Below are positions 2,628 through 27,098 of a stretch of DNA of 32,000 bases, piece after piece. Position numbers and translations under genes: made by a program. A model generated the notes under the pieces. The model was not told where the DNA came from. It saw only the letters and a list, made by a program, of their open reading frames with translations, and did not search any database. Source of the stretch: Clostridia bacterium (GTDB lineage Bacteria > Bacillota > Clostridia > Christensenellales > Aristaeellaceae); contig JAZLIA010000114.1 of assembly GCA_045617125.1 (NCBI GenBank), forward strand, positions 3,690 to 35,689. Direction: 5' to 3'. How positions within the stretch are numbered: position 1 is the first letter of the stretch; the number at the start of each line of letters is the position of its first letter.

Positions 2628-2649
2628 GGGCTGCCCTTTCGGGCAGCCC
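2628..2649. terminator. Bidirectional rho-independent terminator between convergent genes
   Basis: Perfect 9-bp GC stem gggctgccc / gggcagccc with loop tttc. T-rich on both sides (minus strand reads ATTAAAGAATTTTT after the stem). Lies 31 nt below the minus-strand SBP stop at 2680. Confidence 0.8.
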
Positions 2650-4020: not shown

Positions 4021-4078
4021 GGGGATTCCTCCTTTTTTAATTTGCAACAGACATTCGCCTATTGCTTTGTGTTTACAT

Positions 4079-4107
4079 ATTATAGCATTTCACCTAACTG
4101 TTTGCAA
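4079..4107 (-). promoter_or_regulatory. Near-consensus sigma-A promoter for the 455-aa SBP gene
   Basis: The minus strand reads TTGCAA (4107-4102), exactly 17 nt spacer, TATAAT (4084-4079). It lies about 60 nt upstream of ATG 4020 and downstream of the operon terminator. Confidence 0.7.
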
Positions 4108-4253
4108 GCTTTTTTTATAGATTGCACAAAATGAGAACATAGACCGCAGCAATTGATCATCATAAGCCGGGATCATTTCTGTATGATCAAGCTGACGGCA
4201 GCATGTCTTTCACTCCTTCTTTGATGTTCGTTTTATCATTTTTACAGATCAAA

Positions 4254-4302
4254 AATGCAGCTGTGATACTGAAGGTGCCGCCCTCCGGATCACAGCTGCA
4301 TT
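4254..4302 (-). terminator. Rho-independent terminator ending the long upstream operon
   Basis: Perfect 14-bp inverted repeat aatgcagctgtgat (4254-4267) / atcacagctgcatt (4289-4302) with a 21-nt loop. On the minus strand it is followed by a T run (cattTTTgat). Lies 112 nt below the permease stop at 4414. Confidence 0.75.
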
Positions 4303-4413: not shown

Positions 4414-5436
4414 TTATTCCTTGGAACCCGTCATGACCAGACTTTCAACGAAGGTACGCTGAGTGAAAGCATAAAGAACGATCAGCGGGATGCAGCAGAT
4501 AAACACTGCGATAGAAATCAGCTGTAGGGAACGGTTAGGAGCAACGACGACCGCCTGATTGCCTCCAGTGGCAAAGTACTTGGTCATTTCACTGGCCATT
4601 GTACTCATTTCAGTGGAGAAGAGAGTATACTTTGTCAGGAAGTTGCGGGAATAGAACAGGTCGGTCCACTGCCAGACGAACGCAAACAGAAAGCAGCTGG
4701 CGATCGTGGGAACAGCGTCGGGCAGCATGATCTTCACAAAGGTGTGCATGGTTCCGCAGCCATCCACATATGCCGCCTCTTCCAGACTTTCCGGCACGGA
4801 TTTGAAATACTGACGCATCATGAAGATGTAAAGCCCGTTTTTCAAACCCATGCAGGTCAAGCTCATCAAAGCATACGGCCAAATGGATCTTCGTATATTG
4901 AGCGGCTTTCCAGTAATCGCTGTGAAGATCCCGAATATATCAAAATTCGAAAAGTTCTTATAGAGCGATGTCTGGATCGTCTGCGGCGGTATGATGATCA
5001 GCGCGATCACACACGCAAACCAGAATTTCTTCAGCGGAAAATCAAACCTGGCAAAGCCGTATGCCACCAGCGTGCAGGAAATGATCTGCAGCGTAGCAGT
5101 CAGAAGCGATATCCACAGCGTGTTGACCATGGAGTTATCCGGCCAGGAATTCAGCTCCGTAAGATCCGCTACGATCCTGTAGTTGTCCAGAGTAACATTC
5201 CGGGGCAGCAGGATGACCGTGCTGTCATTCAGATCCTTTTCCTGCATCAGACTCATGGACATACGGGTGATCATCGGCTGGATGATCATGAAGCACAGGC
5301 CAAACATCAGCAGCGCCCGGGCCACGGATATCGCGATCTCCTTGCTGCGGCGCTTGAGCAGATAGCCGCCGCTGCGGCGGTTTCTGTCGCTGAATTTCAT
5401 ACTTTTCCCGATATAGACCGTATTATCCTTACTCAT
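4414..5436 (-). CDS. Carbohydrate ABC transporter permease (MalG-like), second pair
   Basis: 340 aa with 6 hydrophobic segments. EAA loop motif LEEAAYVDGCGTMHTFVKIMLPDAVP. 8-nt overlap (ATGAGTAA) with the preceding permease gene. Confidence 0.9.
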   Translation of the reverse strand: MSKDNTVYIGKSMKFSDRNRRSGGYLLKRRSKEIAISVARALLMFGLCFMIIQPMITRMSMSLMQEKDLNDSTVILLPRNVTLDNYRIVADLTELNSWPDNSMVNTLWISLLTATLQIISCTLVAYGFARFDFPLKKFWFACVIALIIIPPQTIQTSLYKNFSNFDIFGIFTAITGKPLNIRRSIWPYALMSLTCMGLKNGLYIFMMRQYFKSVPESLEEAAYVDGCGTMHTFVKIMLPDAVPTIASCFLFAFVWQWTDLFYSRNFLTKYTLFSTEMSTMASEMTKYFATGGNQAVVVAPNRSLQLISIAVFICCIPLIVLYAFTQRTFVESLVMTGSKE

Positions 5437-6424
5437 AAGTCTTCACCACCAGTTTGATAATTGCGGTGCCTACACCGATGATCGCCAGGGCCACACCGAA
5501 ATAGATCCAGCTCATGGCGGAGGCATAACCGAAGTTGCCCTGCCGGTACATCACGGTGCTGGTCACATATTCCATCACCTTGTTATCATTCTTCATGAAG
5601 AAGTCGATGATAGTGTAGATCAGGTTCACCAGAAGCAGCGGGCTCACCATGGGGAAAGTGATCTTCCAGAAGGATTCCCAGGCAGAGCAGCCTTCCACAT
5701 CCGCCGCCTCATACAGGGAGGGAGAAATGGACTGCAGGCCGCTCAGCAGCACGATGATCTGGATGCCGCTGGCCATGACCACGTCATAAATGGCATCGAT
5801 CATTCTGAAGATCACATCAAACACATCACCGGCTACACCGGAAACCGATAGAAGGCTCTCCAGCGCCGCTGAAATATTGACTCCGGAGGCTTCCTCCACA
5901 GAATTGCCAATACCGGTCATCAGGTTATAGAATTCATTGGAGCTTTCGATTCCGGGCAAAACACCGGAAGAAAGGATCACGGGCAGGAAGAAGATGATCC
6001 TGCAGAAGGTCCTGCCCTTGAAATTCTGGTTCAGAATGACCGCGATCACGAAGCTCATCACCAGCGTAGCCACGATATTGATGAGCATACGCCAGATCTC
6101 GCCTTCCAGATCATTCGCTGTGCTGAACAGGTATTTGAAGAAGTTCGGATCGGTCCTGAGCGCATAATTGTAGTTGGTGAAGTTGTTCCATTTGATGATG
6201 TTCAATCCATCAGCAATGCCGTCCACATCACACAGACTCATTGCCAGTGAATTCACGATCGGCTGCAGCAGGAATGCGAAAAAGCCAATGATAAACGGTA
6301 AAATGAACAGAACACCCACACGGGCACGCCGACCCTTGATCGTTCTATAGGGTGCAGTACCTGGAACGTACTGCAGCACGGCATCCCTTGTCCTTTCCAG
6401 GAAGCTGCCCTTTTTTTCACTCAT
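5429..6424 (-). CDS. Sugar ABC transporter permease (MalF-like), second pair
   Basis: 331 aa. EAA motif LYEAADVEGCSAWESFWKITFPMVSP. ATGA overlap with the stop of the 879-aa gene upstream. Confidence 0.9.
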   Translation of the reverse strand: MSEKKGSFLERTRDAVLQYVPGTAPYRTIKGRRARVGVLFILPFIIGFFAFLLQPIVNSLAMSLCDVDGIADGLNIIKWNNFTNYNYALRTDPNFFKYLFSTANDLEGEIWRMLINIVATLVMSFVIAVILNQNFKGRTFCRIIFFLPVILSSGVLPGIESSNEFYNLMTGIGNSVEEASGVNISAALESLLSVSGVAGDVFDVIFRMIDAIYDVVMASGIQIIVLLSGLQSISPSLYEAADVEGCSAWESFWKITFPMVSPLLLVNLIYTIIDFFMKNDNKVMEYVTSTVMYRQGNFGYASAMSWIYFGVALAIIGVGTAIIKLVVKTYE

Positions 6425-9060
6425 TCGGCGATCCCTCCTTCCGATTCAGTGTCGATTCCTTCCGCATCCGCGGGCAGAACAGAGTAGCTGCCTCTCACAT
6501 AGCTTCTGGCAGGGATCAGGGTCCCGTTGACCGTGAAGTCCTGGCTGCCATAGTTGACATACACGCAGCTGCCGTCCTCATAATAGGTTTCAGACACATC
6601 CTCGCTCACATGCCTGTGGCCGATGATAGACTGGCGGTTAAGGCCTGACATATCCTGCTGATACTGTGCAATCAGCGGGAGGATCTCATCCTTCCAGCGG
6701 TCATAGGCTGCGGAGGTGTAGCAGCTGTAAGCAGAATCCTGCAGGATCATGGTATCTTCCTTCATGAAGGTGAAGTTGAGACCGGACCCGAATTCCGCGC
6801 ACCTGAGCAGCGCGGTGTGCCAGTCACCGGCCAGGTTGATCGCCTCACCGGTATAATCCTTCAGGCCATGCAGCACGATCTGGTAGAAGGGAACCGATTC
6901 ATCCAGGATCGCATAGCTGTTTCCGGCCAGATCCATATCCGTCACGATATCCGCATAAGGAAGAGCATACATGTTGCCTGACTTGATAGAAATCTTCATC
7001 GTTGAGGCTGCGGTATCCAGAATGGCGGATTCCATCTTCTTCACTTCTTCACGGGTCACCGTATTGCGGCTGTAATAATCACCGCTGATAAGGCGTCCGA
7101 TATCACGGAAAGCAATACCGGCCGCATTGTGACCGTTCAGATCCCTAATCAGGTTTTCGGCACACTTTTCAGCAAATTCAGGACGCACCAGATAGAACGA
7201 ATCCATCCAATCGCTCTGACGGAAGGTGATGATATCGAACGGATAAAGCTTCACCTGCTCACGGGTGGTATAACGCGCGGCGTTGGAAGCGGGAATGAAG
7301 CCTTCCAGAATGCCGCTGTCATAAGCAAAGCAGGTGATCCCGTCAAAGTAAAGGTCAACTCCCTTTTCCTTAGCGGACTGGATCAGCTCATCCATCTTTT
7401 TATCGCCGCCCAGCTCTCTCACCGTGTTGACGCTGGTGAGCACCTTCTGTCGGACGCCGCCATTTGACCAGCCAGTCATACGTACGGACAGATCCTTTAC
7501 TCCGACTGCCTTCAATTCATCAATGATCTCATCGGCCTGGTCGAATGTGGTGACCGGAACAACAGAATCAATAGGCAGCCCTGCCTTCACCTGTGTCTTA
7601 TTGATGGCACCGACCAGTTCCACATTGACGGGCATATCCTCGGAAGCAGAAACATCCAGATCCTCACCGTATTTTTCCTGCAGATAGGAACGGAAGGAAT
7701 GAGCCATATCCACATAGCTGTCGCCTTCAATGAAACGGTAGCGCTGCACGATCGTTGCTTTGGGGATCTCCTTCTCATACATGTAGAAGGGTTCGGTTCC
7801 GCCGCCGGACACTTTGAACTTGTCATAGTGAATCACGTTATACTTGGCATAAACCTCGTTGTAACTGCTGATCTTTTCTGAAATATCCGCCATGATACTG
7901 GCAAATGCATCGCCTTCTTCGATCACGCAGATAAAGGAGCCGTCCCCCTGCCCCATACCGAACACCGGCAGGGCAGTGCGGTTTTCTGTTTTGGCTTCGT
8001 TCGTGATGCGGGCATAGTCCATGCCGTACACATTGGTCACGTACGTTGCCTGCTTGATCTTATGGTTGTTGTAGCGGATGATGGAGCCGCCGCCTTCGGG
8101 AACGAACATGTAGCCGTCAGTCTTCAGGTCAGCCGCGCCAAACATGGGAAGAACGGAAATCGCGCTCAGCGGTTCACTCGTCCCGCACCGGATGGAATCA
8201 TAGGGAACGGACACCACGAAGTCTCCATTCTCATCAAGCCGGTAGAGGACGGAAAGGTTGAAAATCGGCCCGTTTGAAGTAATTCCCGTCTCCACCTTAT
8301 TGGCGTTATCGATCTCAAGATCCTCCGCGGTGTATCCCGCATCGGCAAAATAGCCTTCCAGATCGCCCTTCTGTTTGATCGACATATCCGCCTTGGCCAC
8401 ATACAGCACATGATCCCGCACAGTGGGATACTGTTCCTCCAGCTGCTTCAGTTCATCTTCCTTCAGCTTGGCAGGATCCTTTTTGCTGTAAAGCTTGCTG
8501 ACAAGCTTGGAATTCTTCTTTCCCATCTTGTCGGAAAAATCCTTGAAACGTTCTTCCGTCAGCACGGTGGGGAAATTGTAGACACGCTCGATCTGACCGA
8601 TCGCGTAATCCACCCTGACAGAACCGTCTTCCTGGTTAATGATATTGAAATTGCGGTTCGCGATGGAATAGGTGTAGTTGTTCCATTCAATATCGGCACC
8701 AAAGCTGGAATAAACGATGCTCACCGTGGAAGCCAGGAATTCACGGTTCTTCTGGATCTTGGCATACTCGGTATCCTCTGCCCAGTTTGTCGGGTTGGAA
8801 TACCACACTTTGCCAGTTTTCTTGTCTGTCAGAGTAAAATGGGTCGTCTGCGGATCCATTTCGAACAGCAAACGCTCATTTTCCATGGTGACTGCTTTTG
8901 CATCCTCATCCGCAAAGAGCACCTCGGGGGCTTCACCGTAATTCACATTGTCGTTCACCGTATACACCTTGTAGAGCACAAAGGCGAACGCAGCCAGGAG
9001 CAGAAGCACCACGCCCAGCACGATCAGGCGGATGAGACGCTTTTTCTTTTTGTTATTCAT
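6421..9060 (-). CDS. N-terminally membrane-anchored 879-aa extracytoplasmic protein, DUF5696-like, function unknown
   Basis: ATG 9060 follows a G-rich RBS. MNNKKKKRLIRLIVLGVVLLLLAAFAFVLY is a signal-anchor. Residues ~477-770 show alternating strand/helix segments (VNVELVG, DEIIDELKAVG, LSVRMTGW, MDELIQSAKEKG, DLYFDGI, AENLIRDL, AGIAFRDIG, ...) suggestive of a (beta/alpha)8 barrel. The family name is recalled from similar gene neighbourhoods and was not searched. Confidence 0.6.
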   Translation of the reverse strand: MNNKKKKRLIRLIVLGVVLLLLAAFAFVLYKVYTVNDNVNYGEAPEVLFADEDAKAVTMENERLLFEMDPQTTHFTLTDKKTGKVWYSNPTNWAEDTEYAKIQKNREFLASTVSIVYSSFGADIEWNNYTYSIANRNFNIINQEDGSVRVDYAIGQIERVYNFPTVLTEERFKDFSDKMGKKNSKLVSKLYSKKDPAKLKEDELKQLEEQYPTVRDHVLYVAKADMSIKQKGDLEGYFADAGYTAEDLEIDNANKVETGITSNGPIFNLSVLYRLDENGDFVVSVPYDSIRCGTSEPLSAISVLPMFGAADLKTDGYMFVPEGGGSIIRYNNHKIKQATYVTNVYGMDYARITNEAKTENRTALPVFGMGQGDGSFICVIEEGDAFASIMADISEKISSYNEVYAKYNVIHYDKFKVSGGGTEPFYMYEKEIPKATIVQRYRFIEGDSYVDMAHSFRSYLQEKYGEDLDVSASEDMPVNVELVGAINKTQVKAGLPIDSVVPVTTFDQADEIIDELKAVGVKDLSVRMTGWSNGGVRQKVLTSVNTVRELGGDKKMDELIQSAKEKGVDLYFDGITCFAYDSGILEGFIPASNAARYTTREQVKLYPFDIITFRQSDWMDSFYLVRPEFAEKCAENLIRDLNGHNAAGIAFRDIGRLISGDYYSRNTVTREEVKKMESAILDTAASTMKISIKSGNMYALPYADIVTDMDLAGNSYAILDESVPFYQIVLHGLKDYTGEAINLAGDWHTALLRCAEFGSGLNFTFMKEDTMILQDSAYSCYTSAAYDRWKDEILPLIAQYQQDMSGLNRQSIIGHRHVSEDVSETYYEDGSCVYVNYGSQDFTVNGTLIPARSYVRGSYSVLPADAEGIDTESEGGIAE

Positions 9061-9073
9061 CCCTCATCCCCCC

Positions 9074-9775
9074 TTAATTCAATCTGAACACGATCTCGCG
9101 GTACATGCTCACAAAGTACCCGATCGCATCCGAAAGCAAGCTGAAGAACACAAGAATCAGGAAAATGATCACGCAGGCCCCGAATACTGTGAACAGCAGG
9201 AACGCGATGGTCTTCGCCGGGCCGTAATCGTGAATTTCCATCAAACCCACAAACACAAGGAACACGCACCATATCACACTGATCGCAAGCAGCACGGTGT
9301 AAAAACCGGATTCCTCAAAGGTGATCATATTGCTCACCAGGATCATCGGCAGCTGGATCAGCACATAGGGCACCAGGGCATAGCACATGCCGATATAAAT
9401 GTTCCGGAAAGTTCCCTTGCCGTCAAACAGCGTGGTCAGGGCCCAGTTTGCCAGGCACAGGATGAGGAACGGGAGCAGCAGAGACGCCATTTCCTCAAAC
9501 ACGTTGATGTGTTGGATGGGAGCGTTGATAAACTGGAAATTGGTGCACAGCAGCTTGAGCACACGGGTGATCAGAAACAGCACCAGGAACGTGGTTGCCA
9601 CTGCAAAGCTGCCCTTATCTTCATGGGCAAGATCCCAAAAGCCATCAAACGGATGAGTGATCACATGCAGGGCATATCGCATGTCACTCAGATATCCGCT
9701 GATCCGGGTGCCAAAGCTCACTTGGTTCATTTCCGCAGCCGCTTCAATTGTCTTTGCGGACTTTTTCATGCTCAT
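9074..9775 (-). CDS. YIP1-family polytopic membrane protein
   Basis: 233 aa. Cytoplasmic N-terminus with HVITHPFDGFWDL followed by five hydrophobic helices, which is the Yip1-domain layout. RBS gggaggtga upstream of ATG 9775. 32-nt overlap with the NHL gene end. Confidence 0.7.
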   Translation of the reverse strand: MSMKKSAKTIEAAAEMNQVSFGTRISGYLSDMRYALHVITHPFDGFWDLAHEDKGSFAVATTFLVLFLITRVLKLLCTNFQFINAPIQHINVFEEMASLLLPFLILCLANWALTTLFDGKGTFRNIYIGMCYALVPYVLIQLPMILVSNMITFEESGFYTVLLAISVIWCVFLVFVGLMEIHDYGPAKTIAFLLFTVFGACVIIFLILVFFSLLSDAIGYFVSMYREIVFRLN

Positions 9776-11297
9776 GCACCATCACCTCCCACTTCATTCT
9801 CCGCACCCTGCCGATAACGACAGGAATGATGAGCAGCACCGCAAGGATCAATGCGACCCACCAGATGTTCTTTTCGACCCAGTACTTGCGGTAAAGCTTG
9901 AACGCTCTTCCGTAACTTTCCTGATCGTGTGCCATCTTGAAATAATTCATGGCTTCTTCATACAAGCCGGGATTCTTATCGCTTCCCTGCTGCAGAAGGG
10001 CACGGCCGATACCGCGGAACGCCAGAGGATAATTTGCATTCAGCCGCATCACGTCCTGCCAGGTCTCTGCGCTTTCGTCATACTCGCCTTTCGTGTACAG
10101 GTTGATGGCCTCATAGATCATCTCACCGTACTCTGTGGGCGTAAACACGGTGATCGTGTTCTTCTGCTGGTCCAGCACCAGAAGATCCCTGCCGATGTGT
10201 TCCAGACTGATCGCGGTGATGAACGCACCGTCAATATTTCCCTGTGTACCGAAAGCCCACAACAGAACACCCTGGCTGTCATAGCCGAACAAACGTCCGC
10301 GGGTCTTGTCGAGTGCAACATAGATATCGTTTTCAAGCACGGTAATATCGGTCATTTTGCTGGGACCGTACTGCTTGGTATCTCCTTCCACCCAGAATAG
10401 ATCCCCGATCGGAGGATAACGGTCATTCTTCACCAGAATGTCATTGCCGATGCCGTTCAGACGGCGGATGGGCTTGGCATTGTCCCACTTCAGATCATAC
10501 TCGCTGAAGGTGGTGGTGGTCACGTAGATGAAACCGTCTTCATCCATATACAGGTTCTCATATTCGGTAGGAACCGTGCTTTCAGAAGCGGAACGCTGGG
10601 CGTCGCTTTCGATAAAACGCTTCCAAATGTACTCCATCATGTCAATAGAGACCTTGTTTGCGCCGATAAAGCCCACAAACTGGCCATCCGTCTCAAACTT
10701 CACAAGCCCCTTGTTCACGTTCTGAACATTGGCATATACACGGCCGCTCACATCCACCGTGATGCGTTTGGGAAGAAAATCGTTTTCCTGACTGAACACG
10801 GGGTCGGAAGGCTTCGTAAACTCCTTGATGAAGTTGAGATCCCTATCCACCATCACGATACGGAAATTCTGCTTGTCACAGATGTAGATGTTGTCTTCAG
10901 CATCCACATACACATCGGTAGGCTGATTCAGCCTGGTCACTTCACAACCGCTGATCTCGCTGAATTCCCGCACCATCACATACTTTCCGTCTTCCCGGCG
11001 CACCTGAATGATGCGGTTGTTTCCGGTATCGGCAATGTAAAGTTCTTCACCCTTCACAAAAATGCTTTCAGGCTTGTTCAGGTCGGTAATGCCCAGGGAC
11101 ATGCTGCTGATCGTGCAGCTGACGCGGTAAGAATCGGGAGATTCCATCACATCTTCCCAATAATCATAGGTGTAGGTATAGGATGTGCTAAAGCCGTCCT
11201 GATTCAGGTTGAAGCTGTCATCCGCCATGACGGAAAAAGCAGGCAGCATCAGTAAAAGGCACATTAGCACGCACAGGACCCGTCTTTGTATTCTCAT
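9744..11297 (-). CDS. Secreted NHL-repeat six-bladed beta-propeller protein with TPR-like segment and C-terminal transmembrane anchor
   Basis: I start it at ATG 11297 (MRIQRRVLCVLMCLLLMLPAFSVMADD signal peptide, RBS aggagga). The track extension to 11591 overlaps the permease gene and is R/H-rich junk. NHL blades include ELYIADTGNNRIIQV, NIYICDKQNFRIVMVD, DIYVALDKTRGRLFGYD and LLVLDQQKNTITVF. C-terminal TM helix NIWWVALILAVLLIIPVVIG. Confidence 0.8.
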   Translation of the reverse strand: MRIQRRVLCVLMCLLLMLPAFSVMADDSFNLNQDGFSTSYTYTYDYWEDVMESPDSYRVSCTISSMSLGITDLNKPESIFVKGEELYIADTGNNRIIQVRREDGKYVMVREFSEISGCEVTRLNQPTDVYVDAEDNIYICDKQNFRIVMVDRDLNFIKEFTKPSDPVFSQENDFLPKRITVDVSGRVYANVQNVNKGLVKFETDGQFVGFIGANKVSIDMMEYIWKRFIESDAQRSASESTVPTEYENLYMDEDGFIYVTTTTFSEYDLKWDNAKPIRRLNGIGNDILVKNDRYPPIGDLFWVEGDTKQYGPSKMTDITVLENDIYVALDKTRGRLFGYDSQGVLLWAFGTQGNIDGAFITAISLEHIGRDLLVLDQQKNTITVFTPTEYGEMIYEAINLYTKGEYDESAETWQDVMRLNANYPLAFRGIGRALLQQGSDKNPGLYEEAMNYFKMAHDQESYGRAFKLYRKYWVEKNIWWVALILAVLLIIPVVIGRVRRMKWEVMVHEHEKVRKDN

Positions 11298-11347
11298 CTG
11301 GTTTTCTCCTCCTGTTTTCATTCTCATGTTCCGGATCCGCGTTTTCG

Positions 11348-12562
11348 TCAGTCCTTGATACCGGACGAGGCCATCGTCTCGAGGATCTGACTCTGACTCA
11401 GAATGAAAATGAGGATGGGCACTGCCATGACCACCACAGTCACAGCCGCGGCCTGACCGGTACGTGCGATACCGCCGGCCTGAATCTGATTGAGCGCATA
11501 CACCAGGGTCTTCTTGGCTTCGGAATAGATCACGGTGCTGGCGCTGGTGTTCCACAGGCTCTGCACACTGAAAATGATCACAGTCAGCCACGCGGGTTTC
11601 ACATTGGGCATCACAATATGCCAGAAGATACGGAATTCACCGGCTCCATCAATGTGTGCAGCCTCGATCAGGGCTGTTGGCAGGCTCTCCATGAACTGCT
11701 TCATCATGAACAGACCGATCGGAGCGGCACACGCCGGCAGCAGCAGAGCCCAGTAAGTGTCGATCATGTTGAGACGGCTCATGATCAGGTAGTTGGGAAT
11801 ACCGGTCACATAACCGGAGAACATCAGGCATGTGGTCACCACGCCGAAGAACAGCTTTCCGCCGGGAAAATCATACTTTGCCAGCACGAACGCCGCCATG
11901 GAAGCAATGATCAGATGCCCGAAGGTTCCTAAGAAGGTGATCAGTACGGTGTTGGTAAGATACCGGCTGAAGGGCACCCAGCTCTGCCCCATCGTGACAA
12001 GAAGATCCGCAAAGTTATCCAGCGTGGGATGCTGTGCAAACACCGTAGGCGGGAAACGGAACAGCTCGTCCAGGGGCTTCAGGGAACTGCCGATCGCAAA
12101 CACCAGCGGGAATGCCATCGCGCAGGCCACCAGCGCCAGAAGCAGGTAGATGCCGATATCGCCGCCGACTGAACGGTTGGGATGGCGGCGGCGTATGCCG
12201 TGCTTTTTGGGTTTCTGGATCCTTTCGCCCCTCAGTTCCGCCAGACGGCGGTATTCATCGGCACGCGTGCGCACCTCGCCGGGACGATCCACCCACTTGC
12301 CGTCCAGATAGCGGAACATCTGAATGCCGCGATCCAAATAGAAGGTGTATTTCTTGTCCCCGCTCACAGTGACCGTCACGGTGGCTGTCGTACCGCCATT
12401 TCGCACCTGCGCCAATTTGGTGATCTGCACCAGCGGGAATTCCACCTTTCCTGCCGGCTTTTTGCATTCGAAGCGGACCTTTTCATCATCCGCGATCAGA
12501 ACACCTTTATATTTTTTACTGTCAAGCCCGGTCATGGAGCCGGTTGATCTGATCTCGCTCAT
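11348..12562 (-). CDS. Carbohydrate ABC transporter permease (MalG-like) with ~130-aa N-terminal cytoplasmic PH-like domain
   Basis: 404 aa. EAA motif LIEAAHIDGAGEFRIFWHIVMPNVKP and 6 TM segments in the C-terminal 270 aa. The N-terminal extension has beta-rich segments followed by one helix (ADEYRRLAELRGE) and a basic linker. Its start lies 1 nt after the upstream stop. Confidence 0.85.
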   Translation of the reverse strand: MSEIRSTGSMTGLDSKKYKGVLIADDEKVRFECKKPAGKVEFPLVQITKLAQVRNGGTTATVTVTVSGDKKYTFYLDRGIQMFRYLDGKWVDRPGEVRTRADEYRRLAELRGERIQKPKKHGIRRRHPNRSVGGDIGIYLLLALVACAMAFPLVFAIGSSLKPLDELFRFPPTVFAQHPTLDNFADLLVTMGQSWVPFSRYLTNTVLITFLGTFGHLIIASMAAFVLAKYDFPGGKLFFGVVTTCLMFSGYVTGIPNYLIMSRLNMIDTYWALLLPACAAPIGLFMMKQFMESLPTALIEAAHIDGAGEFRIFWHIVMPNVKPAWLTVIIFSVQSLWNTSASTVIYSEAKKTLVYALNQIQAGGIARTGQAAAVTVVVMAVPILIFILSQSQILETMASSGIKD

Positions 12563-12563
12563 A

Positions 12564-13511
12564 TCATGTACCCACCTTTGCCAGCAGATTTGTGATCGCT
12601 TTCTTGCACAGGATCATCACCAGGAACAGCAAGGTCGCGATAGCGGATGCATAGCCCATTTCAAACCGGCTGAAGCCGTAGTCAAACAGATGGGTGACCA
12701 CGGTACGGGCAGCATAATCGGTGGAAGGATAACCGCACAGGGCGCGCGGCACATCGCACACGTTGAAAGCGGATGTGATGCTCATCACCGCTCCAAAGAG
12801 CAGCATGGGCTTCATGGAAGGCAAGGTAATATGATACAGTTCCTGCCAGCGGTTGCGCACACCGTCCACATAGCCTGCTTCATACATGCTGCGGTCCACG
12901 CTCTGGAAGCCGGCTACGAAGGAAAGGAAGCCGGTACCCATGCTCATCCACAGAATAACAACGATCAACACAGGCATGATGTACTGCGGATTGAGCAGCC
13001 ACAGGATAGGAGCATCCACAATGCCCAATTCCATCAGGAAAGAGTTGAGATAGCCATATGCGTCACCGCGGAAAATGATTGAGAACACGGTAAAGGCATT
13101 GGCGGCAATGGAGGGAGCATAGAAGATGACTACCGCGATGGTCCTCAGCCACTTTGGAAGCTCATTGATGAACCAAGCAAACATGAAGCTGAGGATGTAT
13201 CCGATAGGACCGGTGATCACGGCGATCACAAAGGTATTTTTGACAGCGGTCAGGAACACCTCGTCCTGCAGGATCAGGTTCACATAGTTCTGAAAACCGA
13301 TGAACCGTGCCGGTTCAAGAATGTTGTAGTAGGTGAAGCTGTAAAAAATCGAGGTTGCGATGGGCAGGATGAAGAAGGTGAAGAACAGAATGGCATACGG
13401 AGCGAGGAAAAGGTAACACACTTTCAGATTTTTTGCCCGTTGCCAGCCATAGACAAACTTTTCCTTCTTCATGGCTGCATACTTGCCGATTAATGATTTT
13501 GACTGCATCAT
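12564..13511 (-). CDS. Sugar ABC transporter permease (MalF-like), first pair
   Basis: EAA motif MYEAGYVDGVRNRWQELYHITLPSMKP. I start it at the ATGATG at 13511 with RBS aaggagag. The track start at 13532 would abut the SBP stop and has no RBS. Confidence 0.88.
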   Translation of the reverse strand: MMQSKSLIGKYAAMKKEKFVYGWQRAKNLKVCYLFLAPYAILFFTFFILPIATSIFYSFTYYNILEPARFIGFQNYVNLILQDEVFLTAVKNTFVIAVITGPIGYILSFMFAWFINELPKWLRTIAVVIFYAPSIAANAFTVFSIIFRGDAYGYLNSFLMELGIVDAPILWLLNPQYIMPVLIVVILWMSMGTGFLSFVAGFQSVDRSMYEAGYVDGVRNRWQELYHITLPSMKPMLLFGAVMSITSAFNVCDVPRALCGYPSTDYAARTVVTHLFDYGFSRFEMGYASAIATLLFLVMILCKKAITNLLAKVGT

Positions 13512-13532
13512 TTTCTCTCCTTTCCCTCCCAA

Positions 13533-16418
13533 TCAATCGAGCGGCAGATTGAATTCTTTACGTTTGATCCTGATCTCCTCGTTGATGGTGCGCGAGTAGG
13601 TCAGCAGTGATTCACGCGGATCGATCTTTTCGTTGATCACCTTACGGATCGCGTTGGTGATATGACGGGTGGTGGAATAGCCGCCTGCGATCTCAGGGAA
13701 GCCGCGGGTACTGCTCCGCTGCTCCTCCAGTACCGTCAGCTGACTGGTGGACCAGGCCAGCTGCCTGAGCGCTTCCTTATTGGCGGTCTGGTAACGGGCA
13801 CTGGCGCCCAGCACGCTTTCCATTTCGCGGCCGAATTCCACCTGACTTTCCGTGCCGACCCACCACTTCATGAACTCCCAAGCATTCTTTTTCACGGTTT
13901 CGTCATCGGTTTTGATCATCATGCAGCAGGTACCGTTGGAATGCACTGTGCGGTCGATCGTGCCGTCCGCCTTCAAGGTTCCGGGGAAGAGGGTGAAATC
14001 CCACAGCCCGCGGATCTCAGGAGCGGAGACCATCAGTGTGTTATAGGTGGAATAGCCTGCCACTCCCAGCGGCATTTCTCCGGAACGGAAACGGCTTACA
14101 AAGTCATACACCATAGGCAAGCCGTAATCGTTGTAAAGGCTGGTATACATCTTGAAAGCCTTCACACCGGCTTCGTTGGAAATGAGTGTCTTTCTCGCCA
14201 GGTCATCATAGATATCTCCCCCGTTCTGATACACCAGGGAATTGAAAATACTGATATCAGCCAGGGTAATATCCGGGAAAGGAACACCCACAGTGAGGCT
14301 GTTGCCCTGAATCGTAGGAAGCTCGGCGATCAGCTCATCCCAGGTCTGCGGAACTTCCAGCCCCAGTTCCTCCAGAACATCCTTGCGGTAGAAGAGCAGG
14401 CTGAAGTTCTGAGTTTCAGGCAAACCGAAAACGCCCTTGTGTTCACCGTTGTTATAGGTGAGCGGGTCCAGTGCGCTCTGCTCAAAAACACTGGCCACTT
14501 CGGCATAGTCTTCAAACTGGGTCAGATCCTCCACCGCGTTGCGCATGGCATAGTTAACGGCAAACCAACCGTCCACGCTCAGAACGATATCGGGACCATT
14601 CCCGGCAACAACGGCTGTCAGGATCGCGTCAGCGGCCACCAGCTTCACGTTGACCTTGATCCCGGTCTCCGGAGTGAAGCTGTCGTCCACCATGGTCTTC
14701 AAAATGGTACTCTGGTCACGGCCTGTAACGATCCAGATATCAATGATGTTGTCTTCATTGGCATCGTATTTGTCGCCCAAAGAGTTATAATCCACAAAGT
14801 AGGAACTGAGACAGCTCCTGATCTCATGCACCGCCTTCATGAAGAAGTTTTCATCCACAGAAGGGATCTTGGCATTTTCTCCGGTTACCATGATCAGATC
14901 CACATCCAGCTTGCTTTCGGACATATTCTGCATCGCGGTGCCCAGAGAAGTAATGTTATCCTTAAAATTGGTAAAGGATTCGGTTATGCGGTCATTGTCG
15001 CGAACAAACTGTTCAAGCTGAACGGCCATGGTCTGGGCTACGGCGATACGGTCGCTCTTCTGGCCCGTCGTGGCTACAGTTTCATCCACGATCCTGTAAA
15101 GGCGCTTGCTCTCCAGATCCATCGCCTCAAGCACTTCGGGATACACCGTTTTCAGGTTATAATCGCGGAAACGGTCGGGATTGACGCCAGTCAGAACCAG
15201 CAGTTTGCGGTAGATCTGGTTTAGGCGGTAGATACTGTCTTCCACTTCATTCAGCACCGGGCCCATGGCGCCCAAAGTGACCTCCATACGGATCTTATGG
15301 CTGCCCGCAGTAAGATAGAAGCGGAAAGGATCCCCTTCCTTGTTGCTCAATGTCACCATCTTCCAACCTGTGCTGTAGGAAAACTCAACACTGCTCAGAT
15401 CGGCAAACGGGATCTCATTGTCGATATAAATACTGCGGCAGCTCAGAGCACCGCGCTGATACACCTGTCTTGCCTTGATGGAAATGTTGTAATAGCCATC
15501 CTCAGGGACTTCAAAATTCCACTCGATCCACTCATTGGGATGCGTCCAGGCATCGCCGCCGATGTAGTTAAGCACCGTGCTGGTAACAGAATAAGGTTCG
15601 GTGACAGAAGAGGAACGGTCATATTTGGGGAAAAGACTGGGCTGGCTGCGCAGCACGGCATGCTCGCCCTGTACCTTCACGCTGCAGTTCCTGCCCGCTT
15701 CGGTCATATTCACCTGCGGCTGCGCCGCGAGATACTCTTCATAGGTTATGTATTTTACGGGAGGAAGCAGCTCGATCCCGCACACCACCATCGGCTCATT
15801 CACAGCCTTCATGGTCAGCGTGTTTTCACCTTCTTCGAAATAGAAACAATAGGGCTCATTCTGATAGCCCATATCATCCTTGCAGAAGGCCTGCTGAATG
15901 CCGAATACTTCCTTTTGGCTGGGGCGGATCTCGTTGCCCTGATTATCGGTACGCACTTCGCTCTTGTCAGTCCACATCCTGCTGAAACACAGCGTGCTGG
16001 CGCCGGTGAAAGGCAATTCACCATTGATCCGGATCTCGCGCTCAATATCCACACCGCGGCTCTGAGTGGTTAGATAATCAAGACGGATATTATAAAGGCC
16101 CGCCTGCGGTACATTCACTTTCCATGTCACTTCGGACCGGTCCAGGGTCAGCACGCCCTCGTCCTGAGAAACGGCGTCTCCCTCATATGCAAACACGTCA
16201 ACAGCAACCGGACCGGATACCGGTGCGGCATCGCTGTGTGCTGCAAGATAAGCCGTGTAGGTGTTGCCCCTTCCGATGCCTTCCGCCTCGGTGCTGAGAT
16301 CACACCCCTCATACTTGACGCTGAAATCGTTGTCTCCCCGGCCTGCGAGCCAGATGAGCACGACCGCAGCTGCCACGATCAGAACGCCCAGAATAATTCT
16401 CCGTACCTTCTTTGACAT
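13533..16418 (-). CDS. Giant (961 aa) membrane-anchored extracellular solute-binding protein with two tandem CBM-like beta-sandwich modules
   Basis: N-terminal signal-anchor RRIILGVLIVAAAVVLIWLAG with no lipobox Cys. Residues ~30-218 and ~240-383 are an internal duplication (VTWKVNVPQAGLYNIRLDY..RG....EIRINGELPF versus IEWNFEVPEDGYYNISIKA..RG....SIYIDNEIPF). A helical linker spans ~385-540. A family-1 SBP fold runs from ~558 to the end (IDIWIVTGRDQSTILKTMVDDSF...). Confidence 0.85.
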   Translation of the reverse strand: MSKKVRRIILGVLIVAAAVVLIWLAGRGDNDFSVKYEGCDLSTEAEGIGRGNTYTAYLAAHSDAAPVSGPVAVDVFAYEGDAVSQDEGVLTLDRSEVTWKVNVPQAGLYNIRLDYLTTQSRGVDIEREIRINGELPFTGASTLCFSRMWTDKSEVRTDNQGNEIRPSQKEVFGIQQAFCKDDMGYQNEPYCFYFEEGENTLTMKAVNEPMVVCGIELLPPVKYITYEEYLAAQPQVNMTEAGRNCSVKVQGEHAVLRSQPSLFPKYDRSSSVTEPYSVTSTVLNYIGGDAWTHPNEWIEWNFEVPEDGYYNISIKARQVYQRGALSCRSIYIDNEIPFADLSSVEFSYSTGWKMVTLSNKEGDPFRFYLTAGSHKIRMEVTLGAMGPVLNEVEDSIYRLNQIYRKLLVLTGVNPDRFRDYNLKTVYPEVLEAMDLESKRLYRIVDETVATTGQKSDRIAVAQTMAVQLEQFVRDNDRITESFTNFKDNITSLGTAMQNMSESKLDVDLIMVTGENAKIPSVDENFFMKAVHEIRSCLSSYFVDYNSLGDKYDANEDNIIDIWIVTGRDQSTILKTMVDDSFTPETGIKVNVKLVAADAILTAVVAGNGPDIVLSVDGWFAVNYAMRNAVEDLTQFEDYAEVASVFEQSALDPLTYNNGEHKGVFGLPETQNFSLLFYRKDVLEELGLEVPQTWDELIAELPTIQGNSLTVGVPFPDITLADISIFNSLVYQNGGDIYDDLARKTLISNEAGVKAFKMYTSLYNDYGLPMVYDFVSRFRSGEMPLGVAGYSTYNTLMVSAPEIRGLWDFTLFPGTLKADGTIDRTVHSNGTCCMMIKTDDETVKKNAWEFMKWWVGTESQVEFGREMESVLGASARYQTANKEALRQLAWSTSQLTVLEEQRSSTRGFPEIAGGYSTTRHITNAIRKVINEKIDPRESLLTYSRTINEEIRIKRKEFNLPLD

Positions 16419-16534
16419 GAGTTCATCTCCCGTTTCGCCGCCGGACAGCAGCGACAGTTTTCACACGGCAAGTCAGTCTTCCCAACATGAAAAGCAAATA
16501 AAAAGCACCAACTTGCATTAATAAATCATCAATT

Positions 16535-16563
16535 ATTATACATATTGCTCAAAAATCTGTCAA
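16535..16563 (-). promoter_or_regulatory. Perfect consensus sigma-A promoter of the 12-kb transporter operon
   Basis: The minus strand reads TTGACA (16563-16558), 17 nt spacer gatttttgagcaatatg, TATAAT (16540-16535). Implied leader of about 110 nt to ATG 16418. Confidence 0.75.
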
Positions 16564-16574
16564 TATTTATATTG
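16561..16574. promoter_or_regulatory. 14-bp palindrome overlapping the -35 box (candidate operator)
   Basis: CAATAT-tt-ATATTG is a perfect 6-2-6 inverted repeat. Its left arm shares 3 nt with the -35 hexamer. The AT-rich context makes chance palindromes fairly likely. Confidence 0.3.
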
Positions 16575-16648
16575 AGATACATCTGTTATCATATTTTACT
16601 ATTCTCTTAAATCTTTATAACAATCGTCATTTCTGAGTTTGTCCGGAG

Positions 16649-16654
16649 TATAAT
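16649..16654 (+). promoter_or_regulatory. Candidate -10 box for the GH10 xylanase gene
   Basis: TATAAT lies 31 nt upstream of ATG 16686. There is no good -35 at 16-18 nt (TCATTT), which may indicate activator dependence. Confidence 0.3.
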
Positions 16655-16685
16655 AAAAAGGAAAAAAGGATCGGAGGGCCCCTTC

Positions 16686-18245
16686 ATGAAACGGTTCGTT
16701 TCACTTATCTGCGCTTTGCTGATCGTTTTGTCCGCTTCGTCCGCACTTGCCGGTGAAGAGGGAACGATGTGGGATTTTGAGGATCTGAAAAATCCCGGCT
16801 TTTACAAATCCGGCGCCTGTCGCTACAGTGTTGAGCCTTTTCCGGATGACAGCGGTTCCTGTGCCCTGCATGTTTCTGAACGCACAGGAGACGGTTCGGG
16901 GGCGCTGGATATCCGCCCTGCCTCTCTGGATCTCCGTTTGGGAGACACGGCGTATATCTCAGTGCTTTTCCGTCAGGATTCTGTTCCGCAATGTGATTTT
17001 TCCCTGTACCTTACCTCGGATAGATCCGTTCCGCTGCTTTCCATCACCGCAGAACAGGGAAAATGGGCTGTGCTTCAGGGAGAATTGACCCTCAGCGACA
17101 ATTCAAACCTGCATTTTGCTCCTTCTGAGCAATTATCCGGACAGGATTTCTGGCTGGACCGGTTGGAAGTGCGTCTTCTTTCCCATGCCGTCAAAGAAGA
17201 AAGCGGCTACAGCCGCTGGCCAAAGGAGATCCCATCTCTCAAGGAGCTTTGCCGGGATCATTTTCTTTTCGGCGGTGCCGCGGCAGGGCTCGACCTGAAG
17301 GATCCTTCCCGGATGGATTTCTATGCCTCCCAGTTTGCAATCCTGACGCCTGGAAACGAGCTCAAGCCGGATTCGGTATTTGACCGTACCGCCAGTCAGC
17401 GCGCGGTGAAAGAAACCGGTGATGAAACACAGGTGCGGGTCCGTTTGAATGCGGCAAAGCCTTTCCTTGACTTTTGCGCATCTCAGCATATTCCCGTTCA
17501 TGGACACACCCTGCTGTGGCATAACCAGACTCCATCCGATTTTTTCCGTCTTGGTTATCTTTCCTCCAGTGAAATGGCGGACCGGGAGATCATGCTGGGA
17601 AGGATGGAAAACTACATTCAGGCTGTAATGGAGATCACCGAGCAGCAATACCCCGGCCTTATCGTCAGCTGGGATGTGGTGAATGAAGCCATTGACGATT
17701 CCACAGGCCAACTTCGTGAAAACGTGAGCTGGTACCGCACCGTTGGCCCGGATTATGTGGAAAAAGCATTTGAATTTGCCAGAAAATACGCAAGAGAGGA
17801 TATCCTTCTGTGTTACAACGATTATAATTCCGCCAATTTTCCCAAATCCAAGGGAATTCTGGAATTGCTGAACACCCTTGTTAAGCAGGACAACATTGAC
17901 TGCTATGGCTTCCAGGCTCATTACGAAACCAACAACCCCACAGTAAGCATGGTGGAAAGCATGTTCCGGAAGGTGACCGATCTGGGCCTGAAGATCCGGG
18001 TGAGCGAAATGGATGTGAAGGTGACCACAGTAACTCCCCTGGGATTTGAACAGCAGGCTAAAAAATACCGGGATCTGATGGAATTGTTCCTCCGTTACGA
18101 ATCTTCCGTTGTCGCAGTACAGACCTGGGGCGGAACGGATGACACCAGCTGGCGTTCTTCCGATCGCCCCTTGCTTTTCGCGGCCTACGGAGAACCCAAG
18201 CCCGCCTTCTGGGCCGTCGCAGGGCTGTTTCAGAAAACAGAATAA
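16686..18245 (+). CDS. Secreted GH10 endo-1,4-beta-xylanase with N-terminal CBM22 (CBM_4_9)-like module
   Basis: RBS ggaggg 7 nt upstream. Signal peptide MKRFVSLICALLIVLSASSALA. GH10 hallmarks: GHTLLWHNQTP, WDVVNEA (acid/base Glu), CYNDYN, GFQAHY, IRVSEMDV (nucleophile Glu), QTWG. The first ~160 residues form a beta-rich CBM-like domain. Confidence 0.92.
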   Translation: MKRFVSLICALLIVLSASSALAGEEGTMWDFEDLKNPGFYKSGACRYSVEPFPDDSGSCALHVSERTGDGSGALDIRPASLDLRLGDTAYISVLFRQDSVPQCDFSLYLTSDRSVPLLSITAEQGKWAVLQGELTLSDNSNLHFAPSEQLSGQDFWLDRLEVRLLSHAVKEESGYSRWPKEIPSLKELCRDHFLFGGAAAGLDLKDPSRMDFYASQFAILTPGNELKPDSVFDRTASQRAVKETGDETQVRVRLNAAKPFLDFCASQHIPVHGHTLLWHNQTPSDFFRLGYLSSSEMADREIMLGRMENYIQAVMEITEQQYPGLIVSWDVVNEAIDDSTGQLRENVSWYRTVGPDYVEKAFEFARKYAREDILLCYNDYNSANFPKSKGILELLNTLVKQDNIDCYGFQAHYETNNPTVSMVESMFRKVTDLGLKIRVSEMDVKVTTVTPLGFEQQAKKYRDLMELFLRYESSVVAVQTWGGTDDTSWRSSDRPLLFAAYGEPKPAFWAVAGLFQKTE

Positions 18246-26972: not shown

Positions 26973-27010
26973 CTCGATCCTCCGGAAAAAAGCACGAATA
27001 TATCAAGCTG

Positions 27011-27019
27011 ATTATAGCA
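27011..27019 (-). promoter_or_regulatory. Extended -10 promoter element upstream of the PucR-family gene
   Basis: The minus strand reads TGCTATAAT (TGn + TATAAT), about 40 nt upstream of ATG 26972. Weak -35 TTCCCA at 17 nt. Confidence 0.5.
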
Positions 27020-27098
27020 CATTCATCATGGAATGGGAACCCCCAAAGGAAATGCGACGCGATTCTGTCATATTGTTGCGAAAGACACGCAAAACAAC

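Follow-up and report, generated by a model that had tools for sequence, protein, structure and literature searches.

Why should genes for three membrane-tethered proteins without an established role in solute uptake lie in the middle of an operon for ATP-binding cassette (ABC) permeases? The question is raised by a 32,000-nucleotide stretch of DNA from a Clostridia bacterium (contig JAZLIA010000114.1; this whole stretch is the window in what follows), in which eight consecutive, tightly packed open reading frames (ORFs) on the minus strand, spanning 16418..4414 according to the ORF list and the translations, encode a giant substrate-binding protein (SBP1), a permease pair (P1/P2), an NHL/TPR protein, a Yip1-family protein, a DUF5696 protein and a second permease pair (P3/P4). 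An earlier interpretation made from the DNA letters, here called the sequence-only reading, had proposed that the three accessory proteins are functionally linked to the transporters. Comparison with related loci supports this link and adds a ninth gene, encoding a second substrate-binding protein (SBP2). Our preferred explanation, in which we have somewhat better than even confidence, is that the locus is a nine-gene glycan-uptake module, widespread in Bacillota, that combines two CUT1 importers with a scaffolded DUF5696 ectodomain.

The conservation of the gene order carries most of the argument. Relatives of DUF5696 are numerous: 836 matches were obtained among the scored candidates, 3234 clusters (50% identity, E <= 1e-30) came from a full HMMER search through 1.84 billion representatives, and species-representative genomes contain at least 584 confirmed matches. 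Our close set consists of the best 80 genome loci, whose six-frame ORFs were searched with the window proteins and whose DUF5696 proteins are 38-54% identical to that of the window; it covers Christensenellales, Clostridia metagenome-assembled genomes (MAGs) from rumen and gut, Oscillospiraceae and Lachnospiraceae, and includes Lachnotalea glycerini DSM 28816 and the mouse isolate D16-50. The order and strand of SBP1-P1-P2-NHL-Yip1-DUF5696-P3-P4 are kept in 80 of 80 loci, with gaps at contig ends only. A distant set of 12 independent loci (24-35% identity), among them Paenibacillus lycopersici, Natronospora cellulosivora (Halanaerobiales) and a Limnochordia MAG, has NHL and Yip1 directly 5' of DUF5696 and a permease pair directly 3' of it in every case. 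This pair is P3/P4-type wherever checked, orthology to P3/P4 or P1/P2 having been assigned for the first six distant loci. The sequence-only reading had named co-conservation as the test of its functional link, and the link passes that test in both sets.

The giant SBP with P1/P2 is present in seven of the 12 distant loci, where it is sometimes permuted (after P4 in locus L081, after SBP2 in L086), whereas four (L083, L087, L090 and L091) have no giant SBP within 10 kb; the L088 locus is cut at a permease. As the adjacency around DUF5696 holds 12 times out of 12 and SBP1-P1-P2 is missing from four, the core of the module is NHL/Yip1-DUF5696-P3-P4(-SBP2), and SBP1-P1-P2 is a frequent partner of this core, not a fixed part of it. 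Within the close set the median identities to the window proteins are:

P1: Christensenellales-like loci 81%, Lachnospiraceae 71%
P2: Christensenellales-like loci 76%, Lachnospiraceae 71%
SBP1: Christensenellales-like loci 67%, Lachnospiraceae 54%
Yip1: Christensenellales-like loci 66%, Lachnospiraceae 47%
P4: Christensenellales-like loci 66%, Lachnospiraceae 51%
P3: Christensenellales-like loci 63%, Lachnospiraceae 48%
NHL: Christensenellales-like loci 56%, Lachnospiraceae 46%
DUF5696: Christensenellales-like loci 49%, Lachnospiraceae 39%
SBP2: Christensenellales-like loci 49%, Lachnospiraceae 34%

By these values DUF5696 and SBP2 evolve fastest, as expected of specificity determinants.

The layout of the window itself confirms the earlier description of the eight genes. 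The genes below were taken from the ORF list and Pfam unless another source is named:

13533..16418, minus strand: SBP1 gene
12564..13511, minus strand: P1 gene (mechanical ORF to 13532)
11348..12562, minus strand: P2 gene
9744..11327, minus strand: NHL/TPR gene (alternative start 11297)
9074..9775, minus strand: Yip1 gene
6421..9060, minus strand: DUF5696 gene
5429..6424, minus strand: P3 gene
4414..5436, minus strand: P4 gene
2680..4020, minus strand: SBP2 gene, from locus comparison and sequence matches in the structure database
16563..16535, minus strand: sigma-70-type promoter TTGACA-17-TATAAT, a 12/12 match in the consensus scan
4302..4254, minus strand: intrinsic-terminator-like hairpin followed by UUUUU in the P4-SBP2 spacer, from folding
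4107..4079, minus strand: promoter-like TTGCAA-17-TG-TATAAT with extended -10, 5' of SBP2, 10/12, a consensus match only
2628..2649, minus strand: GC-rich hairpin GGGCTGCCC-GAAA-GGGCAGCCC 3' of the SBP2 stop, read directly and unscored by the scan

The mechanical ORF of P1 begins at a TTG (13532), and an ATG at 13511 is preceded by GGAGG and is likely the true start; with it the SBP1-P1 gap is 21 nt. The P1-P2 gap is 1 nt, the P2-NHL gap 20 nt (Met 11327) or 50 nt (Met 11297), the NHL and Yip1 genes overlap by 32 nt, 13 nt separate Yip1 from DUF5696, the DUF5696 stop and the P3 start share an ATGA overlap, and P3 and P4 overlap by 8 nt. These coordinates agree with the tiny gaps and overlaps of the sequence-only reading, its 50-nt gap being the one obtained with Met 11297. 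The promoter at 16563..16535 is the sole 12/12 match in the region; it lies within a 267-bp intergenic region common to a divergent GH10 gene, 117 nt 5' of the first ATG, and by our estimate chance would give fewer than 0.01 perfect matches over both strands of 13 kb. The terminator consists of a perfect stem of 14 bp and an inner stem (-33 kcal/mol, z = -6.0, none of 200 shuffles equally stable); its long loop made it escape the pattern scan. All signals on the coding strand in between are weak (promoter-like matches of 9-10/12, terminator-like stems of 5-8 bp). Rfam and tRNA scans of the window gave no match, and no riboswitch was found in the 117-nt leader.

The bracketing of eight genes by a promoter and a terminator is thus correct as a description of the window, but it leaves out SBP2, which belongs to the unit. 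Separate transcription of SBP2 is a local peculiarity, since only ~28 of 70 related loci have a terminator-like element in the P4-SBP2 spacer; for the same reason this terminator was rejected as a defining feature of the module. The nine-gene unit probably ends at the hairpin at 2628..2649, which is followed after 10 nt by a T-run.

The transporter parts fit a familiar type. Pfam confirmed most of the identities assigned by the sequence-only reading, namely the SBP, four permeases, the NHL/TPR protein, Yip1 and DUF5696. All four permeases match BPD_transp_1 (E 1e-9 to 9e-15) and, as read from the translations, keep the EAA-x3-G loop, and each of them is therefore expected to couple to an ABC ATPase. 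P1 is a MalF/UgpA-type permease with six transmembrane (TM) segments and an EAA motif, P3 a divergent MalF-type permease with an EAA motif that adjoins DUF5696 in all relatives, and P4 a MalG-type permease, again with an EAA motif. P2 is of the MalG/UgpE type with a cytoplasmic N-terminal extension of ~130 aa. The PH domain formerly assigned to this extension had to be given up, as the N-terminal 131 aa show no PH, GRAM or other Pfam match; the extension is confined to Christensenellales-like loci (ORF of ~420 aa) and absent from the Lachnospiraceae, Paenibacillus and Halanaerobiales copies (~286-305 aa). Searches of the window proteins against NCBIfam returned only generic permease and SBP relatives far below the cutoffs. 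The locus contains the pair of BPD_transp_1 permeases with an EAA loop and the extracytoplasmic SBP expected of a CUT1-type (type I) importer.

SBP1 is a membrane-anchored protein of 961 aa with an N-terminal TM segment (aa 8-26), two beta-sandwich modules (~aa 60-220 and 295-381), a four-helix region (aa 385-500) and a CUT1-type SBP domain (aa 573-863; SBP_bac_8/SBP_bac_1, E 3e-24) that resembles oligosaccharide SBPs in Foldseek searches. Its AlphaFold2 (AF2) model has a mean predicted local distance difference test score (pLDDT) of 58, with high confidence solely for the first beta-sandwich, and was built from a shallow alignment of sequences 72-76% identical; the Foldseek search returned the SBP domain only and gave the N-terminal modules no fold assignment. 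For the modules resembling carbohydrate-binding modules (CBMs) that had been proposed earlier, the CBM35 signal is weak. Beta-sandwiches are predicted, PF16990 is precomputed on many SBP1 homologues that are 73-74% identical, and weak PDB matches of the N-terminus fall on CBM35-containing chains, but in the window copy CBM35 stays sub-threshold (16.6-19.3 bits against a cutoff of 28, E 0.0015-0.01), and three sub-regions of the extension searched separately against Pfam gave only sub-threshold CBM35 and Golvesin_C matches.

The ninth gene emerged from clustering of the flanking ORFs, in which ~70 of the 80 loci proved to have a gene of ~475 aa directly 3' of P4 and in its orientation. Among the 73 informative loci, those with enough sequence downstream of P4, SBP2 adjoins P4 in 71. 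The window copy encodes a 446-aa lipoprotein that starts MKKLLAMLLVAALLVVSC and has the signal ...LVVSC; it has no Pfam match even at E <= 10. It does match, among PDB sequences, the arabino-oligosaccharide SBP AbnE (6rjy, E 6.5e-7) and a trehalose/maltose SBP, and its orthologue in L070 matches SBP_bac_1 with E 8e-13. SBP2 is a divergent CUT1-type SBP and the presumed partner of P3/P4. With SBP2 added, the unit encodes two importers that are complete except for the ATPase, SBP1-P1-P2 and P3-P4-SBP2.

The only exceptions to the nine-gene pattern among the informative loci are L023 and L040, which have intact eight-gene modules with no SBP2 within ~8 kb downstream of P4, and L028, where SBP2 is on the opposite strand (14726-16165). 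In L083, a sulfatase-rich locus without the giant SBP, a 1282-aa protein without Pfam match (13656-17504) is encoded directly 3' of P3/P4 at the usual place of SBP2 and could be a replacement binding protein. Opposite SBP2 in the window there is an antisense ORF of 433 aa (2833-4134, plus strand) with no Pfam match and a low-complexity, Gly/Val/His-rich translation. Its equivalent is open in 57 related loci, and it is most likely a shadow ORF arising from the codon composition of SBP2, not a gene.

How could the accessory proteins serve these importers? Hydropathy and the positive-inside rule, from which the topology of SBP1, NHL, Yip1 and DUF5696 was predicted, agree with the earlier statement that all three accessory proteins are membrane-tethered and that the two large ones have their bulk outside the cell. 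The NHL protein (NHL match of 39.7 bits against a cutoff of 20, with a weak TPR match) has a signal peptide, extracellular bulk and a C-terminal TM segment at aa 488-506 of the 527-aa form. Its NHL domain has five to six matched stretches to the six- and seven-bladed Pizza designs (E 5e-19), and among solved natural structures it comes closest to the extracellular sensor domain of PknD (1rwi, E 3e-9); judged by these matches it resembles canonical six-bladed propellers, the blade count being a prediction. Yip1 is a 233-aa protein with five TM segments that covers positions 2-172 of 173 of the PF04893 profile (50.6 bits against a cutoff of 28.6). In seven of the 12 distant loci NHL(-TPR) and Yip1 are joined in a single ORF of 690-741 aa. 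This fusion makes topological sense, as the C-terminal TM segment of NHL leads into the cytoplasmic N-terminus of Yip1, and as a "Rosetta-stone" fusion it is good evidence that NHL and Yip1 work as one unit; on the level of sequence it also argues for their physical association. YknW, another protein of the Yip1 family, influences how the ABC transporter YknXYZ assembles (PMC4887032), and this precedent suggests that NHL-TPR-Yip1 may act as a scaffold.

The third accessory protein, of 879 aa with an N-terminal signal anchor and its bulk outside, had been called DUF5696-like and proves to be a true full-length member of that family (PF18952; 630.8 bits against a cutoff of 25.6, E 3e-189, profile positions 2-612 of 612). 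Its AF2 model (pLDDT 77, predicted TM-score 0.75, 37-sequence alignment) has an N-terminal beta-sandwich, a (beta/alpha)8 barrel and a C-terminal beta-sandwich. Foldseek against the PDB placed the 3,6-anhydro-D-galactosidase ZgGH129 of Zobellia, from glycoside hydrolase (GH) family 129, first (5opq, E 6.6e-30, TM-score 0.62 on the target), together with the GH129 alpha-N-acetylgalactosaminidase NagBb (5wzn, E 4e-24, TM-score 0.65) and GH101 endo-alpha-GalNAc-ases (~1e-15), with GH36 and GH31 lower in the list. DUF5696 family profiles also match the PDB sequences of ZgGH129 (E 1.5e-10 and 1.9e-11) and NagBb (2.5e-6), the GH129 matches covering only N-terminal, pre-barrel/early-barrel and C-terminal stretches. 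Identity to GH129 and GH101 is 12-14%, far under the level implied by CAZy family membership, and a single-sequence phmmer search against them gave E 0.07. On the strength of the profiles and the predicted fold, DUF5696 is a remote homologue of the GH129/GH101 group that is not fileable as a member of it.

Among 252 members with a median identity of 29% to the window protein, the conserved polar residues of DUF5696 are D348, E381, D/E322, D661, R670, N696, D720, N742, E756, H815 and N836; D661 is Asp in 95% and Asn in 4%, R670 is kept in 99%, D720 in 89%, N742 in 100% and E756 in 96%. The profile alignment also brings out an N-terminal motif common to DUF5696 and ZgGH129. In its weak central stretch a second shared motif appears, PFYQIALH pairing with PLFNLVYH (P-F/L-Y/F-x-[IL]-[AV]-x-H), and R670 pairs with an Arg of ZgGH129. 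We take the catalytic nucleophile and acid/base to be D486 and E517 in ZgGH129 and D435 and E478 in NagBb; the title of PDB entry 8rzk also points to D486. D661 sits nine residues before R670, and by extrapolation the Arg of ZgGH129 lies seven residues after D486, so that by spacing D661, at about the position of D486, is the best nucleophile candidate of DUF5696. D653, in an "FRD" motif at a barrel-strand end, was also considered as nucleophile and rejected, being Asp in only 116 of 252 members and conserved within the close group only. A conserved pocket in DUF5696 is likely from these residues, and the glycosidase-type fold of the model fits a role in "processing", with hydrolytic competence remaining putative.

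Two other features of the family were observed. The loop of aa 579-624, between barrel strand 3 and the next helix, has a pLDDT of 28-35, and A579, Y580, G587, F588, A594, R596, T599, R600, T612, Y623, L624 and P627 are invariant in close relatives; as a candidate for binding a partner or substrate, it may become ordered only in a complex. Long DUF5696 proteins of 1300-2400 aa occur in L056 (1372-6096), L059 (9959-14791), L060 (9983-14782) and L062 (9959-13870) and as proteins P0260 (1622 aa) and P0261 (2431 aa). In these variants ~280 aa are inserted before the part that Pfam matches, and the C-terminal extensions are long; a Pfam search of long variants (1000-2400 aa) and of unannotated neighbours found no extra domains.

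The genes around the module vary. In the window the neighbour is a xylanase gene, and the most frequent neighbours in the close loci are the following:

16686..18245, plus strand: divergent secreted GH10 xylanase of the window, a variable neighbour
AraC regulator: near the module in 18 of 80 close loci
GH10: ~16 of 80 close loci, position and strand varying
GH5: 15 of 80 close loci
GH43 beta-xylosidase: 9 of 80 close loci
FGGY sugar kinase, possibly xylulokinase: 6 of 80 close loci

At the distant loci the neighbours differ fully: GH106-like; GH38 with GH85; sulfatases; DUF5060 with GH113; PL14; pectate-lyase-like and CBM4_9 proteins; GH2 with GH10; GHL15 with GH127; GH113 with GH10; and GH18. 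AraC, LacI and two-component regulators flank many orthologous loci, while no regulator adjoins the operon in the window, where the nearest is a PucR-type gene 9 kb away. Carbohydrate-active enzymes (CAZymes) that change with the lineage indicate a generic platform, not a xylan-specific one. Beside these neighbours we noted a GHL15-family ("hypothetical glycoside hydrolase-like") protein in L091 (17258-18454) that stands with GH127 next to a minimal NHL::Yip1-DUF5696-P3-P4 module, and in the window GH10 protein a region of ~160 aa before the catalytic domain (aa 25-180) without Pfam match at E <= 0.001, which may be a divergent CBM, CBM22-like by position. Farther off in the window, a 411-aa polytopic membrane protein without Pfam match is encoded between the PucR-type regulator gene and a metH-like gene (27099-28334, minus strand), and the only strong AT skew of the window (+0.295, at 27001-28000) overlaps its gene.

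Taken together, these results suggest the following mechanism. The NHL-TPR ectodomain and Yip1 would form one membrane-embedded scaffold that holds the glycosidase-like ectodomain of DUF5696 beside the P3/P4 translocator. Lineage-specific secreted CAZymes, here the GH10 xylanase, would release oligosaccharides, which would be bound and trimmed, or handed over, at the membrane surface, and SBP2 would deliver the product to P3/P4. SBP1, a giant TM-anchored protein with beta-sandwich modules and a helical stalk, would capture a second, probably larger, class of oligosaccharides for P1/P2, and both importers would be powered by an unlinked MsmX/MsmK-type ATPase. Gene content, domain identities, topology, co-conservation, the fusion of NHL with Yip1, the GH129-like fold and the changing CAZyme context are what the analysis shows; in this scheme we infer complex formation, hydrolysis, the substrate, the division of labour between the importers and the shared ATPase. 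A stronger version, which we put forward tentatively and well below even confidence, is that NHL-TPR-Yip1 and DUF5696 are obligate extracytoplasmic subunits of a new class of ABC importer in which cleavage or recognition is coupled to import, a Bacillota-wide, ATP-driven counterpart of the SusCD-SusG "utilisome", with SBP1/P1/P2 as an optional second intake.

Several observations weigh against a nine-gene uptake module with a processing ectodomain, and most of those that concern DUF5696 are at the same time what one would expect if the transport role were the same and DUF5696 were not a hydrolase. Pfam finds no ABC_tran ATPase gene in the operon or in the 32-kb window, and no ABC ATPase was found inside the module in any related locus inspected. 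Firmicute CUT1 importers are known that use a shared orphan ATPase, MsmX in B. subtilis and MsmK in streptococci, and the missing gene is compatible with an unlinked ATPase of this type. In the window a strong terminator parts SBP2 from the other eight genes, some carriers such as L087 and L088 have no CAZyme nearby, and the relatives of the NHL propeller include no enzyme. For DUF5696 itself, a Pfam search of six members at E <= 10, in which GH101, GH129 and GHL families were sought, found no GH family; D661 is replaced by Asn in nine of 75 close orthologues whose modules are otherwise intact; K693, which aligns weakly with the acid/base E517 of ZgGH129, is K, N or R, so that this position holds no conserved acidic residue; and a wide profile of 111 sequences does not align the DUF5696 barrel centre to GH129. 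The non-conserved acid/base, the change of D661 to Asn and the lost barrel-centre alignment make catalysis uncertain, and the earlier idea of processing by DUF5696 gains a GH129/GH101-type fold but not an invariant catalytic pair. DUF5696 might then be a lectin-like or pseudo-enzyme receptor, comparable to SusD/SusE rather than SusG, that with NHL-TPR-Yip1 captures, threads or hands over long oligosaccharides to the importer. The restriction of D653 to the close group and the very different CAZyme sets joined to the module, as expected for a generic binding platform, would suit such a receptor as well. Yet the conservation of a polar constellation in 89-100% of 252 members is what active sites typically show, the pairing of R670 with an Arg and the common P-F/L-Y/F-x-[IL]-[AV]-x-H motif suggest that the scaffold of the catalytic centre has been retained, and the stretch that aligns K693 with E517 scores only 2.9 bits and is unreliable. 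We regard a pure receptor as rather unlikely, while giving it serious weight.

The substrate and the wider purpose of a glycan-uptake module with a scaffolded DUF5696 ectodomain can be weighed in the same way. The sequence-only reading implied xylan as the substrate, and in this window a xylan or arabinoxylan system is suggested by the divergent secreted GH10 xylanase, which shares the promoter region, and by the GH10, GH43, FGGY kinase and GH5 genes of related loci. We find this doubtful, since most of the 80 syntenic loci lack GH10, the specificity of the SBPs is unreadable from sequence, and a fold of the GH129/GH101/GH36/GH31 type goes with alpha-glycosidases and not with cleavage of the beta-xylan backbone; for the module as a whole the implied xylan substrate does not survive the neighbours found elsewhere (GH106, GH38 with GH85, GH113, sulfatases, PL14, GH127 with GHL15, GH18). 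Alternatively, the cell could use the module to recycle or remodel its own envelope glycopolymers, such as secondary cell-wall polymers or exopolysaccharides, with DUF5696 trimming and the importers salvaging. The barrel superfamily related to GH101 and GH129 has families that act on exopolysaccharides (GH114, GH135 and GH166), and some carriers have housekeeping or envelope genes in place of CAZymes beside the module, a Polysacc_synt/MurJ-like flippase in L087, infC-rpmI-rplT in L088 and a polysaccharide deacetylase in L090. Most sampled loci, however, lie amid CAZymes for plant or host glycans, sugar kinases and AraC, LacI or two-component sugar regulators, SBP1 resembles oligosaccharide SBPs, and the 3234 DUF5696 clusters with their varied CAZyme neighbourhoods resemble the diversification of polysaccharide utilisation loci (PULs), which together make envelope recycling improbable. 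That the accessory genes are no more than chance neighbours of two ordinary ABC operons would agree with the weak internal promoter-like matches of 9-10/12, but the 80 syntenic and 12 distant loci, the gene fusions, the overlapping start and stop codons and an order kept from Christensenellales to Paenibacillus effectively refute it.

The nine-gene module can be compared with several known systems. Gram-positive PULs (gpPULs) of Roseburia and Eubacterium rectale (Sheridan et al. 2016, PMC5320581) are defined only by their content, an enzyme, a transporter and a regulator. Like the loci described here, they group ABC importers for sugars with glycoside hydrolases and with regulators of the AraC/LacI type in Firmicutes, they lack SusC/D, and their substrate capture is thought to occur via CBMs and SBPs (PMC5320581). 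The window has an enzyme (GH10) and transporters but no adjoining regulator; the locus fits the loose gpPUL concept in part. The differences are that no conserved NHL-Yip1-DUF5696 accessory set is described for gpPULs in the text consulted (PMC5320581), and that here a fixed core of five to nine genes recurs across orders with interchangeable CAZyme neighbours. With the Sus-like PULs of Bacteroidetes the module shares a logic in which a surface-tethered binding protein and a surface-tethered enzyme, putative here, are encoded with, and presumed to serve, a dedicated transporter, as well as a conserved core combined with variable CAZymes. There is, however, no homology between the two, Pfam finding no domains of SusC (the TonB-dependent transporter) or SusD in any window protein, and the module sits in the cytoplasmic membrane, its import is ATP-driven and its complex is one that we infer.

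Single components have their own precedents. GH129 and GH101 enzymes have the three-domain architecture and fold of DUF5696 (Foldseek E 7e-30 to 1e-15, profile E 2e-11), but DUF5696 is membrane-anchored and always encoded with NHL/Yip1 and a permease pair, and we know of no GH129 or GH101 gene in such company. Importers energised by MsmX or MsmK likewise have operons of an SBP and two permeases without an ATPase gene of their own; the unit described here differs in its two permease pairs and two SBPs, its three extra membrane or surface proteins, and an SBP1 that is TM-anchored with a 550-aa N-terminal extension. The YknWXYZ system of Bacillus also encodes a Yip1-family polytopic protein in an ABC transporter operon (PMC4887032), but YknYZ is a MacB-type exporter with a membrane-fusion protein, whereas here type I importers with SBPs are encoded and Yip1 is linked, and often fused, to an extracellular NHL/TPR domain.

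The sequence-only reading had also known of no experimental description of the module. We found no mention of DUF5696 or PF18952 in the open-access literature, subscription-only papers being outside the search, and no open-access paper that joins Yip1, NHL and ABC transport; searches for Yip1 with xylan and for SBP with CBM35 likewise gave none on the module. What appears to be new is the invariant NHL/Yip1-DUF5696-permease core and its spread across Bacillota, the gpPUL concept itself being known (PMC5320581).

Much less is known of glycan uptake by Gram-positive bacteria of the gut and rumen than of the Sus paradigm in Bacteroidetes, and the current picture for Firmicutes is that of an ordinary ABC transporter with nearby enzymes. 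The module described here is very common and spans Christensenellales, Oscillospiraceae, Lachnospiraceae, Halanaerobiales, Limnochordia and Paenibacillus, and as cultured carriers exist, the hypothesis is directly testable. If the three proteins do form an accessory complex of an ABC importer, they would represent a new architectural class of importer, DUF5696 would gain a function and become a candidate for a new GH family related to GH129 and GH101, and glycan-uptake loci of Firmicutes would become traceable in genomes through the core genes, much as PULs are through the SusC/D pair.

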